Shown: piece after piece, positions 455 through 22,112 of the stretch | Numbering within the stretch: position 1 is the stretch's first letter | How the letters are laid out: every line of letters begins with the position of its first letter | Virus record (IMG/VR): IMGVR_UViG_3300016478_000199 | Strand: one strand, 5' to 3' | From: an uncultured virus (IMG/VR IMGVR_UViG_3300016478_000199) | Taxonomy: Duplodnaviria; Heunggongvirae; Uroviricota; Caudoviricetes | DNA length: 27,082 bases | Translations under genes and position numbers: made by a program | The notes under the pieces: model-generated | What the model was told of the DNA's origin: nothing | Database searches by the model: none | The model's input: only the letters and a program-made list of their open reading frames with translations

Positions 455-546
455 GCGCCCTATACGCGCCCTAAACAATCGCCGGACGTCTACAGCCTTG
501 CTGCGCTGTGCTGTCCGGCCTGTTGTTGCCCTGATACAGGATCAGG
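455..546. repeat. bipartite att-like element copy 1 (GCGCCC-TATAC-GCGCCC ... CCTGA-TACAGGA-TCAGG)
   Basis: Hexamer direct repeat at 455/466 and inverted repeat at 530-546; same geometry as 7 other copies. Confidence 0.9.
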
Positions 547-549
547 TAT

Positions 550-906
550 TCAATCCACGATTGATACAACGCTCATGCCCTTCACCACCGCCTTGCCGCC
601 GGACGTGAGCGGGTACTTGCCAGACCCAAGCGTCTTGATCGCCTTTACTGTGGTCGGCGTCAGGATGCTGGCCTTGATCTCTTCCAAGTTGATGCCATAG
701 ACCCGCTCAACGTATCGCAGCAGCGCGTGCTCTGTGACCACTGGCTCTTTCATGGCCTCGCTCAAGCGGCTGTTCAGAACAGCAATGCGATCTGATACTT
801 CTTTGTGCTCGCGCTGCGCACTGATCATAGCCTCTCGCTTTACTTGCTCGTCGGCTTTCGCTTTGCTCAGTTGCACCTGCAGCGCTTTAAGCTCGTGCGG
901 ACTCAT
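550..906 (-). CDS. phage protein with N-terminal coiled coil and C-terminal 'VTEHALLRYVERV' domain
   Basis: Heptad-like N-terminal half; HALxRYxER motif typical of small phage proteins; ATGA overlap with the upstream gene. Confidence 0.75.
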   Translation of the reverse strand: MSPHELKALQVQLSKAKADEQVKREAMISAQREHKEVSDRIAVLNSRLSEAMKEPVVTEHALLRYVERVYGINLEEIKASILTPTTVKAIKTLGSGKYPLTSGGKAVVKGMSVVSIVD

Positions 907-1334
907 TCACCACCCCGCTCAGCCCGTACCCAGCCAAGCGCGCGCATGGCGGCCTCGTCCAGGGCTTTCATGTCGTTGTCGCCCTCGCGGAAAAACGCCA
1001 CCAGCGTCTGCGGCCCGCAGCGCTTCTGGATAGCCATCACCAGCGACTCGGCTTCCGGCCTGTGCTCAGGCAGGATGTCACAGAAGAACGCCAACATGGT
1101 CGCATCCGTTGGGATCTGCTCAATGCGCGCAGCGGCCAAGCCCTCAGCCGCACTAAGCCGGCGCACCAGATCGATCATGACTTGGGGAGACGCTGCAGCA
1201 ATGAACTCACGATCTTCTTTGTCGTAGCCAGGGAACGCGTCGCCGTCGAACCAAGGTTCTTCAGGCCCTTTGCTGATCGCAGCCTGGGCAGCAGCCACCA
1301 GCGCGTCCAAATTCAGGTTGATTTCTACTACCAC
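903..1334 (-). CDS. Ead/Ea22-like phage protein
   Basis: 'DREFIAAASPQVMIDLVRRL' resembles the Ead/Ea22 'DAEFIAAANPxxVLALL' motif; start moved to GTG 1334, which follows an AAGGAAAGGAAG RBS and a promoter. Confidence 0.6.
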   Translation of the reverse strand: MVVEINLNLDALVAAAQAAISKGPEEPWFDGDAFPGYDKEDREFIAAASPQVMIDLVRRLSAAEGLAAARIEQIPTDATMLAFFCDILPEHRPEAESLVMAIQKRCGPQTLVAFFREGDNDMKALDEAAMRALGWVRAERGGE

Positions 1335-1381
1335 CTTCCTTTCCTTGCCGGGCGATGCCCGGCTTCTGTCGTTTTGCCTGA

Positions 1382-1411
1382 ATTGTACTTGCAATGCTCA
1401 GATATGAGCAA
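1382..1411 (-). promoter_or_regulatory. sigma70-like promoter TTGCTC-N18-TACAAT overlapped by palindrome TGCTCA-TATC-TGAGCA
   Basis: Read directly on the minus strand. Confidence 0.55.
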
Positions 1412-1413
1412 GA

Positions 1414-20859: not shown

Positions 20860-21167
20860 TTGTCGCCGCCCAGTGAAGCAATGACGCCTGGCGGCAGGTG
20901 CTCAGGCTTTGCGATCAGCTTTGCGCGGGTCTGCCCGGACAGGTAGCGATCAGCGGTGCTCCAATCGATGCCGTAGTGCCGCATCAGGCGCTGTCTGCTC
21001 CATCCGGCAAAATCACTCAGCGCACGCAGTTCGAGGATCTGCGAGTCGTTCAAGATGGTGCTTGGGCCACGAGCCGCGCCTGTCGCTTTCGACTTTCGAG
21101 CGGTAGCGGTCTGGTCGATGCGCGCACCGCCACGGGCAACGGTTGCGTAGGACAGACGAATGCTCAC
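20856..21167 (-). CDS. putative HTH DNA-binding protein
   Basis: 'LNDSQILELRAL...GWSRQRLMRHYGIDWSTADRYLSG' HTH pattern. Confidence 0.65.
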   Translation of the reverse strand: MSIRLSYATVARGGARIDQTATARKSKATGAARGPSTILNDSQILELRALSDFAGWSRQRLMRHYGIDWSTADRYLSGQTRAKLIAKPEHLPPGVIASLGGDK

Positions 21168-21400
21168 CGAGAACCATCCAGGGCAGCGCGCTGGAGATCC
21201 TGCAGCCGCGCCTTGCGCTCGGCTTTGCGCGCCTTGCGCTCGGCTCGGCGGCCGGCGTCGTCCAGCATCAGATTCATGTCATAGCCAGGCTCTAACTCCC
21301 GGCGTCGCTCAGGCATGACTACCTTGTGGCCGGATGCGCTGAGCACGGTAGCCAGGGCGATTGCGGTGGCGCCTGCGCCGATCAGGGCAACGCGACTCAT
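21164..21400 (-). CDS. hypothetical protein (78 aa)
   Basis: Coupled overlaps; hydrophobic N-terminus and basic C-terminus. Confidence 0.6.
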   Translation of the reverse strand: MSRVALIGAGATAIALATVLSASGHKVVMPERRRELEPGYDMNLMLDDAGRRAERKARKAERKARLQDLQRAALDGSR

Positions 21401-21591
21401 GCCGGCACCTTGATGCGCTGCAGGAACATGATCCCGGCAGCCAAGAATGCGCCGAATGCGGCACTGCCCCAGTCGCCAAGCAGCACGTTCTGCAGAACCG
21501 CGCCAAGCACAAAGCCAACCACGATCAGGCCGGCATCACGGCAACCTAGCCAGTGCCAAACCTTGCTGAAAAAACCGCTGAGCTTTTCCAC
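21397..21591 (-). CDS. small two-TM membrane protein
   Basis: Two hydrophobic segments; GGGGAGAG RBS. Confidence 0.6.
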   Translation of the reverse strand: MEKLSGFFSKVWHWLGCRDAGLIVVGFVLGAVLQNVLLGDWGSAAFGAFLAAGIMFLQRIKVPA

Positions 21592-21634
21592 CCTCTCCCC
21601 TTACCGCTGGTGCGGCGTATTAGGTTTTGCTCAA

Positions 21635-21988
21635 TTATGCGCTTTGCTGTTGCTGTGGCGCAAGCGCTCGGCGTTGCTCGTGCAGGTCGAGGATTCGCCG
21701 ACGCAGCCCATTGCTTGCGTTATGCCCGAAACGCTCTTCGACCTTGGCCAGGTAGTCATTGCGCTGGGCCTTGTTCGGGAGGTCGAGCACGTAGGCCGGT
21801 TCCACGTCCATGCAGCAGCGTTTCAGGGCTTCCACGGCAGCCGCGCCACGCTTGGCCTCGATCAGCGCGAAGAACTCGACGCGCTCGAAGTGCGGCTTGG
21901 CCAGGACATACCTGGCTTCGCATTCCTGCCTCCAGGCTTCGCTGCTGCTATCGACCTGCTGGCCATCGTGCAGGGTGACGGTATTCAA
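21635..21988 (-). CDS. conserved phage hypothetical protein
   Basis: 'VDSSSEAWRQECEARYVL...RG..A.E.L' pattern, internally duplicated; AAGGA RBS. Confidence 0.65.
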   Translation of the reverse strand: MNTVTLHDGQQVDSSSEAWRQECEARYVLAKPHFERVEFFALIEAKRGAAAVEALKRCCMDVEPAYVLDLPNKAQRNDYLAKVEERFGHNASNGLRRRILDLHEQRRALAPQQQQSA

Positions 21989-22020
21989 GCGGCTGTTTCC
22001 TTGATCAGATTTTTAGTTTT

Positions 22021-22112
22021 GCGCCCTATGCGCGCCCCACAACTCACAACCAATACGCAAATGCTTGTTTTCAATAGCATTTCCACCAATGAGCACCAGA
22101 CTGGCAATCAGG
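22021..22112. repeat. bipartite att-like element copy 8 (core CCAGA-CTGGCAA-TCAGG)
   Basis: GCGCCC at 22021/22032; core at 22096-22112; same 92-bp geometry. Confidence 0.85.

Follow-up and report, generated by a model that had tools for sequence, protein, structure and literature searches.

Why would phages carry, again and again between the genes of one variable region, a short sequence built like half of an attachment site? The question is raised by IMGVR_UViG_3300016478_000199, an uncultured virus of the Caudoviricetes represented by a 27-kb metagenome fragment of a phage genome (27,082 nt, hereafter called the window), in which eight copies of an element of about 92 bp are spread over positions 455 to 22112. 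Phage genomes are mosaic and, apart from the PeSL (promoter-terminator) cassettes of T4-type phages, we know of little evidence for dedicated sequences at module borders. We find that the architecture of the elements, the identity of their motifs with those of the attP, attL and attB sites of related phages, and their co-occurrence and co-variation with the integrase module of these phages are established, and that the elements are probably, judging from sequence comparison, attL-like integrase sites of a "core plus one arm" type at the borders of accessory modules. The fuller reading, in which the eight elements would be dispersed copies of one half of the clade's own integrase attachment site, used for module exchange, we hold at a probability of roughly 0.45.

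Eight co-oriented elements lie between genes of the window

A search of the window for the box pattern GCGCCC-N5-GCGCCC, with up to one mismatch allowed, returned eight matches, all exact and all on the plus strand (starting at 455, 10918, 12058, 15189, 16740, 18960, 20153 and 22021), and no further or decayed pair at that stringency. Shuffled versions of the window (n = 100) held a mean of 1.41 box pairs and a maximum of 4, with 0/100 reaching eight, and the eight co-oriented elements are far above chance. Each pair is accompanied by an exact plus-strand copy of the inverted repeat (IR) CCWGA-N7-TCAGG (at 530, 10993, 12133, 15264, 16815, 19033, 20227 and 22096), which starts 73-75 nt past the box start in 8/8 copies and gives an element length of 92 bp in six copies, 90 bp in copy 6 and 91 bp in copy 7. 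These starts, lengths and shared orientation had been reported in a preliminary description made from the letters of this DNA, and the pattern search confirmed them. In all eight copies the two core half-sites are inverted around a 7-bp spacer, and all eight spacers are different. Alignment of the copies shows that the element as a whole is not palindromic and that the linkers, as first described, have diverged (mean column identity of 52% over element and flanks).

All open reading frames (ORFs) flanking the eight elements lie on the minus strand, and in gene direction the order is the stop codon of the upstream gene, the IR (CCWGA-N7-TCWGG), a linker of 56-58 nt, the boxes (GGGCGC-N5-GGGCGC) and the next gene. 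The layout given for the plus strand by the preliminary description was right; the emphasis shifts in gene direction, in which the boxes are downstream of the IR and directly before the next gene. The stop codon is 3, 8, 1, 6 and 16 nt from the IR in copies 1, 2, 4, 5 and 6, respectively, whereas in copies 3 and 7 it is the TGA within the CCTGA of the IR, and at copy 8 the ORF 22071-23093 reads through the IR, in agreement with the stop positions first noted.

The element is common to a clade of temperate myoviruses

One sequencing run contained 98% of the words sampled from the window, and no RNA run was among those listed. The relatives of the window are temperate myoviruses of ~90-95 kb, namely the Pseudomonas phages Jeremy and Dolphis, the Aeromonas phage ST4 and the Bordetella phage PHB04. 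Exact box pairs number 9 in Jeremy, 9 in Dolphis, 7 in ST4, 6 in PHB04 and 0 in Touem01, and none was found in Morganella phage Mecenats66, Yersinia phage fHe-Yen8-01 or Escherichia phage ECML-606-1, in which the counts at up to two mismatches were about those of a reversed-pattern control. The distance from IR to boxes in Jeremy, ST4 and PHB04 is the same as in the window. Scanning relatives with the full motif, as had been proposed, showed the element to be common to the clade, with 59 loci on 24 IMG/VR contigs and 61 metagenome loci, at 3-10 copies per genome. Bacterial genomes gave 33 matches, of which 25 stand alone on their contig, mostly in high-GC or metagenome-assembled genomes, and these 25 are probably chance. 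Two complete IMG/VR genomes (G007, 81 kb; G008, 60 kb) carry one full element each and no integrase, and we treat these elements as strays; that of G008 shares ~96% identity with an element (L072) whose context is unrelated.

Among 82 distinct elements pooled, the gap between IR and boxes is 59 nt in 46, 60 nt in 17, 58 nt in 16, 61 nt in two and 57 nt in one, and linker content varies freely while the gap stays fixed, apart from a weak mid-linker motif, C..GG..T. The logo of the IR is ACCWGAY-N4-ARTCWGG, and the W positions of its two half-sites vary independently (TA 32, TT 20, AA 17, AT 13). This lack of co-variation indicates that the IR is a protein site on duplex DNA rather than a hairpin, and an RNA or DNA hairpin was ruled out as its identity on the same ground. 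The co-oriented upstream ORF ends between -35 and +68 nt from the first base of the IR in 77/83 elements, the TGA of CCTGA serves as stop codon in 24/83, and the Shine-Dalgarno (SD) sequence or start codon of the next gene is often 1-20 nt past the boxes. Depending on the criterion, 13-21 of the 82 linkers hold an intrinsic terminator just before the boxes.

The same motifs build the attachment sites of related phages

Jeremy encodes an integrase of 434 aa, a tyrosine recombinase with Arm-DNA-bind_3 and Phage_integrase domains, as well as an HU/IHF-like protein and an HTH_17 (Xis-like) protein. Upstream of int, two co-oriented box pairs are present in Jeremy, Touem01, PHB04, ST4 and the IMG/VR loci L113-L116, 273-276 bp apart (222 bp in ST4) and without the IR spacing of the dispersed elements. 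These attP box pairs flank a tRNA fragment. Jeremy, Touem01 and L113 have the 3' half of tRNA-Arg(ACG) there, PHB04 has tRNA-His and L114 the 5' half of tRNA-Gly; in ST4 a full tRNA-Lys stands past the second box pair, not between the pairs. The attP core of ST4 copies the anticodon loop of this complete tRNA-Lys, and its core-to-box gap is 61 nt, near the 58-60 nt of dispersed elements.

The integrated state is represented by a prophage in NZ_JACHWB010000001.1 (titled Microvirga lupini), which contains six full elements. Its left junction consists of an intact tRNA-Arg(ACG), with the anticodon arm CCAGA-CTACGAA-TCTGG, followed by box clusters, and its right junction holds int, a box pair 72 nt upstream of int and a 48-bp direct repeat of the 3' part of the tRNA that begins in the anticodon stem. 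The attP sites of the relatives and these junctions together indicate that boxes stand on both attP arms and that the core is an anticodon arm of exactly the form of the dispersed IR. The correspondence of the 7-nt anticodon loop and its stems with the 7-bp overlap and core sites of such integrases is established (PMC8371274). As in the tRNA attB sites of the P4 family, where the integration core is an anticodon stem-loop with a 5-bp stem and a 7-nt loop, the form of the core is thus that of a tRNA arm, whereas the dispersed IRs are not tRNA-derived and lie between protein-coding genes; no more than 29/82 of them have T where U33 would be.

The closest likeness of the element as a whole is to attL and attP of the lambda type, with which it has in common the inverted half-sites around 7 bp, a fixed spacing and arm sites that form tandem direct repeats with a period of 11 bp; the arm sites start ~67 bp from the core centre, and the dispersed motifs also build the true attP and attL of the relatives. 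The elements differ from lambda-type sites in number and place, with 7-10 copies per genome that lie within the phage at gene borders, in having one arm each, in having spacers that are all different, in a linker that is often a terminator, and in mostly lacking the IHF consensus. A further parallel exists with KplE1 (IntS/TorI), in which attL overlaps the promoter PintS (PMC2951348), much as the box pair overlaps the upstream region of int here. By its core, its arms and the cognate integrase of the relatives, the element therefore has the tested sequence features expected of an attL-like site. The att-like reading of the preliminary description stands as regards the inverted core with a 7-bp spacer, the phased arm boxes and the same motifs in attP and attL of relatives, while the cassette system that it went on to propose remains conditional.

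Elements and integrase occur and vary together

In Touem01, the pair adjoining int is GGGCCC-N5-GGGCCC, and GGGCCC-type boxes are also found in its three dispersed elements; the locus L099 represents a second GGGCCC phage. This joint change at attP and at dispersed sites in Touem01 implies that one phage-encoded factor reads both. In ST4, a phage-specific right half, TCAGAC, is common to the dispersed IRs and the attP core. The N-terminal domain of the integrase is 76% identical between Jeremy and ST4, and the rest of the protein gives no match at E ≤ 10; at 33293-34462 of the ST4 record, the integrase is the clade's arm-binding N-domain fused to an unrelated catalytic part. No paralogue of this N-domain was found elsewhere in these genomes.

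The preliminary description had predicted a tyrosine recombinase with an arm-binding domain, and one is present in every element-rich relative tested. It occurs in 5/5 named box-bearing phages (by tblastn in Jeremy, Dolphis, PHB04 and Touem01; annotated and aligned in ST4) and in the genomes G001-G006, G009-G012, G014 and G015, and it is missing from 3/3 box-less relatives (Mecenats66, fHe-Yen8-01 and ECML-606-1). The AT-rich genome G014 combines this N-domain with GC-rich boxes and with full elements whose IR lies at exactly 59 nt. Two integrases with no boxes within 1 kb (L117 and L118) had been considered as a counter-example, which was withdrawn, as their contigs carry box pairs elsewhere. 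The presence of the integrase tracks the elements, whereas that of an AraC-family regulator gene, found beside elements of the window, does not, and AraC is absent from the complete element-rich genomes G005, G009 and G011. On these comparisons the integrase likely binds the elements.

An alternative reader would be a transcription factor. The boxes might be a phage-specific promoter or activator site of the downstream gene, with the IR as an upstream activator site, and the candidates would be a sigma-54 promoter (-24/-12), an AraC-family activator, or another phage RNA polymerase or sigma factor. The position of the boxes, 1-30 nt before the SD or start in many elements, agrees with this, as do a GG-N10-GC spacing that fits sigma-54, an AraC gene that has elements on both sides in the window (11018-11956) and likewise in Jeremy, the order of terminator, boxes, SD and ATG (at +20) in L073, and a box pair 48 nt before tRNA-Lys in ST4. 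Yet transcription from a sigma-54 start ~10 nt past the boxes would remove many SDs, the motif co-varies with phage lineage and not with host, two elements face an oppositely oriented downstream gene, and the ST4 tRNA case is accounted for by attP. Neither the 60 non-structural Jeremy proteins nor the 41 window ORFs gave a match to a Sigma54_activat, sigma-factor or RNA-polymerase domain, and, besides the three AraC-less genomes, AraC recognition helices do not track GGGCGC versus GGGCCC. We consider a promoter or activator function of this kind highly improbable. The specific candidate of a sigma-54 promoter with activator site was rejected because the SD or start is frequently 1-13 nt past the boxes, because the motif changes with phage lineage and because no activator ATPase was found in the proteins searched, and AraC as box reader was rejected on its missing from those genomes and on helices that do not distinguish the box variants.

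The preliminary description had also pointed to P1 parS, in which hexamer boxes and a repeat surround a possible bend, and on this basis the elements could be dispersed parS-type centromere sites for a ParB-like protein; in one relative, a methyltransferase is annotated as having a ParB-like domain at its N terminus. No ParB-family match was obtained in the 41 window ORFs or the 60 Jeremy proteins, these phages integrate, and the motifs of the element are those of attP. The centromere alternative is thus unsupported and extremely unlikely.

The element differs from other sites that border accessory genes

Several known systems place recombination or regulatory sites at the borders of accessory genes. 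As in the attC arrays of integrons, the elements are co-oriented sites directly past stop codons in a variable accessory array, with a tyrosine recombinase on the replicon of relatives. Unlike attC, they form no folded single-strand palindrome, the integrase is of the P4 type with an arm domain and not an IntI, the downstream gene carries most of the element along with it, and modules are often multi-gene. The pdif sites of Acinetobacter plasmids, which have an 11-6-11 Xer geometry, use a host recombinase and lack arms, likewise bracket accessory modules with recombinase sites; the half-sites of the element measure 5-6 bp and enclose 7 bp (or 5 bp), and it has distal arm boxes, differences judged against the Xer consensus rather than by formal scan. 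The integron-like or pdif-like identity first proposed therefore does not hold, since the defining features of attC and pdif are lacking.

With the PeSLs of T4-type phages (PMC2839356; PMC4122927), the element shares a repeated intergenic occurrence in hyperplastic accessory regions and at the edges of indels and replacements, and some of its linkers are terminators. It differs in lacking a conserved sigma-70 promoter (-35/-10), in having the motifs of an att site and in belonging to a temperate clade; sigma-70-like promoters do occur outside the element, past some boxes. The stoperators of L5-type mycobacteriophages are single 13-bp repressor sites over the whole genome. Like the elements, they are numerous and asymmetric, occupy short intergenic spaces and point along the direction of transcription (PMC9283540), and the elements differ in being bipartite, 92 bp long, made of att motifs and restricted to one region. 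The integron attC, the pdif site, the PeSL and the sigma-54 promoter were accordingly rejected as identities of the element, each for want of its defining features. Classical integrons in phages, a different thing, have been reported (PMC9892861), and in the literature searched, which did not include the PHB04 genome paper, we found no account of att-like sites dispersed within phage genomes.

Elements delimit modules, and several homology breaks fall at the core

The seven dispersed elements of Jeremy are all in its rightward accessory block, with the early control region on one side and the terminase on the other, and its structural and replication genes have none. The module order in the window is methylase, element, methyltransferase module, element, small-gene module, element, AraC, element, giant gene, and that in Jeremy is methylase, element, AraC, element, MazEF/methyltransferase/PurZ-like module, element, small-gene module, element, giant-gene region. 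The AraC module thus follows two modules in the window and precedes their homologues in Jeremy, and what the modules contain also varies between relatives.

The preliminary description had asked whether breakpoints between related genomes fall at the cores, and several do. Near-relative contigs lose homology to the window at 12150 and 12155, next to the end of the IR of element 3 (12149), and at 16813 and 16827, at the IR of element 5 (16815-16831). At element 7, relatives break at 20243/20249 with 269 extra nt, and another break, at 20158/20249, has 746 nt in place of 91. A 327-nt gene indel between Jeremy and Dolphis ends 7 nt before an IR, the loci L061 and L079 are 95% identical from the downstream gene through boxes and linker up to a break inside the 7-bp spacer, and replacements in several pairs are bounded at IR position 0 to -6. 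In a first, smaller set of 28 homology ends, two were at the IR, too few to judge; among 62 informative ends from 136 distinct elements, six were within 10 nt of the IR, against ~0.8 expected under a uniform model only, one was at the boxes and one in the linker. Many breaks also occur at element-free junctions, and gene ends confound the comparison, as considered below.

In the window region around elements 4 and 5, a contig of run X6 joins 16764 back to 15229 with 15 other letters between, and this joint constitutes a hybrid element around the methyltransferase gene, with the IR of element 4, a 58-nt linker and the boxes of element 5. A circle, a tandem copy or two paralogous genes in a relative could each account for it.

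Exchange or regulation

How might such sites work in exchange? The integrase would be a heterobivalent tyrosine recombinase of the P4/lambda type, for which CCWGA-N7-TCWGG would be the core-type site, with two inverted half-sites and a 7-bp overlap like the anticodon-arm attB of tRNA genes, and GGGCGC-N5-GGGCGC the pair of arm-type sites bound by its N-terminal arm-binding domain. The fixed linker of 58-60 bp would let one integrase assembly bridge core and arm, presumably with a bend made by the phage HU/IHF-like protein, as in lambda attL. Sites at the 3' end of each accessory module could then serve as crossover points between the same site in two related genomes, the partners being a co-infecting phage or a resident prophage, and modules would be reassorted without cutting genes, while the different 7-bp overlaps would keep the copies within one genome from recombining together. 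That all eight window spacers differ makes it less likely that a homology-dependent recombinase excises the DNA between neighbouring copies. Exchange is favoured because it accounts for a core of the catalysis type, for spacers private to each copy, for elements confined to the variable region, for permuted modules and for breaks in the IR. We regard integrase-catalysed exchange as a tentative candidate for the selected function of the elements, at somewhat less than even odds, and the stricter proposal of an integrase acting as a module shuffler, through attL-like sites with private overlaps that exchange only between the same site in two genomes, as more doubtful still.

A number of observations weigh against this use in exchange. 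No integrase was detected among the 41 ORFs of the window by domain search, in keeping with the preliminary description, which had noted the lack of a recombinase gene, and, the window being a fragment without integrase, the link to the integrase rests on relatives. The dispersed IRs of Touem01 end in TCTTG and its attP core has TCTGG; the distance from core to arm is 58-60 nt in the elements versus ~95-126 nt in attP and attL of the tRNA-Arg phages; and the exact IHF core consensus CAAnnnnTT stands mid-linker in only 8/83 elements. Many homology breaks occur at element-free places (10414/10794, 14666/15111 and 19238/19467 in the window), and 54 of the 62 informative ends lie in flanks. The loci L072 and L093 share only the 93-bp element (~96% identity) between unrelated flanks on both sides, and the replacement between L090 and L174 is bounded at box end +2, neither of which a core crossover explains. 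In 18 pairs of related elements the spacer was not better conserved than the linker (identity 0.55-0.65 vs 0.60-0.75, in the two lower bins). As the IR abuts gene ends (77/83 elements, 24 with the TGA of CCTGA as stop), breaks there are expected from ordinary gene replacement, and the homology data therefore do not separate site-specific exchange from replacement at gene borders. Finally, the perfect conservation of the hexamers in every copy fits a function in each infection, such as regulation, better than an evolutionary benefit.

Some of these data suit passive recombination linkers, that is, conserved terminator or regulatory cassettes between genes, whose short identical motifs provide micro-homology, in the manner of PeSLs, for general or phage-encoded homologous recombination; the likeness to attP would then reflect shared binding proteins, with no catalysis at dispersed sites. 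Both edges of the element act as junctions, as seen in L072/L093, in L090/L174 and at 20158, where the break falls within a box. The proteins of Jeremy include a PDDEXK exonuclease, an SSB and an SMC/RecF-like ATPase, and PeSLs, described in PMC2839356 as composite promoter-terminator motifs, mediate shuffling and form mini-circles. The identical stretches are, however, just 17 bp long, homology-driven exchange needs neither a strict 58-60 bp spacing nor a core-like geometry, and breaks favour the IR over the box side (6 vs 1 within 10 nt). We find passive linkers improbable.

A different role could be played by the same integrase-bound, attL-like complexes if the function selected were regulatory, with the elements acting as roadblocks, insulators or repressors between genes and with bridged integrase/HU complexes shutting off or separating accessory units in the lysogen or early in infection. 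Consistent with this, every copy points in the direction of transcription, even where PHB04 and IMG/VR contigs have oppositely transcribed arms, they sit exactly between stop and next start, 13-21/82 linkers have the terminator just before the boxes, and at convergent junctions (MazEF in Jeremy; 48452 in PHB04) the element follows the upstream gene. The lack of decayed window copies at one mismatch suggests strong selection on each copy, and in all relatives int is preceded, at 28-73 nt, by a box pair. Documented precedents are the KplE1 integrase, which represses its own promoter through the overlapping attL (PMC2951348), and the repressor stoperators of L5-type mycobacteriophages (PMC9283540). 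A roadblock, though, could do without a catalysis-type core and its 7-bp spacer, the elements occur only in the variable accessory block, with none among the structural and replication genes of Jeremy, and a regulatory role leaves the permutation of modules and the breaks at the IR without explanation. We judge regulation as the selected role unlikely, albeit the main rival to exchange.

The individual copies and their surroundings

All eight elements read on the minus strand, and their spacers are given here in gene direction. Element 1 (455..546; boxes 455-471, IR 530-546, spacer TCCTGTA) follows the ORF 550-906, whose stop is 3 nt from the IR, and precedes the ORF 10-432, whose GTG start is 22 nt past the boxes. 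Element 2 (10918..11009; boxes 10918-10934, IR 10993-11009, spacer TGCTGAA) lies between the AraC-family gene 11018-11956 and an ORF of 1763 aa (5615-10906), and it agrees in spacer, box N5 and downstream sequence with the Jeremy element that precedes the giant-gene region. Element 3 (12058..12149; boxes 12058-12074, IR 12133-12149, spacer TCACAAG) is preceded by the ORF 12145-12366, whose stop TGA is that of CCTGA, and has the AraC gene downstream. The 1763-aa ORF (minus strand) gave no Pfam match; relatives of it are annotated as ADP-ribosyltransferase, the one in Yersinia phage fHe-Yen8-01 as a particle-associated toxin-like protein, and the Jeremy homologue has a C-terminal ADPrib_exo_Tox match. 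From these annotations, the protein is possibly an injected host-modifying enzyme.

Element 4 (15189..15280; boxes 15189-15205, IR 15264-15280, spacer GTTACTA) lies downstream of the methyltransferase gene 15282-16718 and has an intrinsic terminator in its linker (15214-15237), at which Rfam gave only a sub-threshold match (ncS54, 30 bits vs a gathering score of 43). Element 5 (16740..16831; boxes 16740-16756, IR 16815-16831, spacer CAGTAAA), with a hairpin and T-run in its linker, separates the methyltransferase genes 16838-18343 and 15282-16718. In total, the window contains three N6/N4 DNA methyltransferase genes (12366-13400, 15282-16718 and 16838-18343) and a gene for a DUF4942 protein (1414-3099), all on the minus strand; the Jeremy homologue of the last also has a small methyltransferase-domain match. 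Relatives add PAPS-reductase-like and adenylosuccinate-synthase-like (perhaps PurZ-like) genes, and this set, together with the methyltransferases, hints at heavy DNA modification.

Element 6 (18960..19049, 90 bp; boxes 18960-18976, IR 19033-19049, spacer TAAATAA) is flanked by the ORFs 19066-19260 and 18340-18903. Element 7 (20153..20243, 91 bp; boxes 20153-20169, IR 20227-20243, spacer CTCCAAG) follows the ORF 20239-20502, whose stop TGA lies within CCTGA, and precedes an acyl-carrier-like ORF (19894-20133) with a GTG start 19 nt past the boxes; the C-terminal peptide of ORF 20239-20502 ("filled" alleles) had 0 matches in a metagenome scan. The acyl-carrier-protein-like product of 19894-20133 (minus strand) is small and matches PP-binding (E 4e-13), in the accessory block. 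In the same region the minus-strand ORF 19236-19460 gives a weak, below-cut-off match to ribosome modulation factor (E 0.0024) and is replaced in one relative's contig. Element 8 (22021..22112; boxes 22021-22037, IR 22096-22112, spacer TTGCCAG) is overlapped by the ORF 22071-23093, which reads through the IR, and has a DUF7696 gene (21635-21988) downstream; Jeremy likewise has an element before its DUF7696 gene. Upstream of the element-bearing block, the stretch 23000-24000 has a G+C content of 0.50 versus ~0.60 elsewhere, and its Jeremy counterpart is a divergent intergenic control region.

A simple promoter scan returned 3 sites versus 4.1 expected, none at elements. A sigma-70-like promoter (TTGnnn, 17-18 nt, TATAAT-like) with a TCAAATTTGA-type palindrome between its hexamers is present at ~15153-15182 on the minus strand of the window. 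Promoters of this type recur just past some elements and upstream of one integrase gene, being found also in Jeremy (L001 ~13080-13115), ST4 (~12500), L066, L228 and, upstream of int, L118, and a shared repressor might use the palindrome as its operator. Another motif, GTCGTGA(C/T)..CAC(A)AT, stands 15-35 nt past the boxes of about ten elements, in the window at ~10870-10895 and ~18920-18940 (minus strand) and elsewhere in Jeremy, ST4, L036, L043 and L060, and in five phages the box pair nearest int has a related sequence, GGCAGTGA(T/A), after it. Jeremy additionally contains an unannotated insertion of ~926 bp (record ~70399-71417; L001 ~24092-25015), absent from Dolphis, which is flanked by a 93-bp direct repeat and is not at an element.

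Implications for the clade

A whole clade of temperate myoviruses, with Pseudomonas, Aeromonas, Bordetella and Microvirga hosts, carries sites made from its own attachment-site motifs, and the copies border its most variable genes, namely those for methyltransferases, toxin-antitoxin pairs, regulators and a virion ADP-ribosyltransferase-like protein. Jeremy and Dolphis are cultured phages of P. putida, and the question is open to direct testing. If the integrase only binds at these sites, it would have a genome-wide regulatory role beyond its own promoter. If it acts there, the clade would provide a natural set of orthogonal sites, with different overlaps, for one integrase, and site-specific recombination would contribute to phage mosaicism. 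The module-shuffling proposal, if true, would amount to an integron-like cassette economy built from lambda-type sites and would give a molecular basis to the "linker" idea of modular phage evolution.

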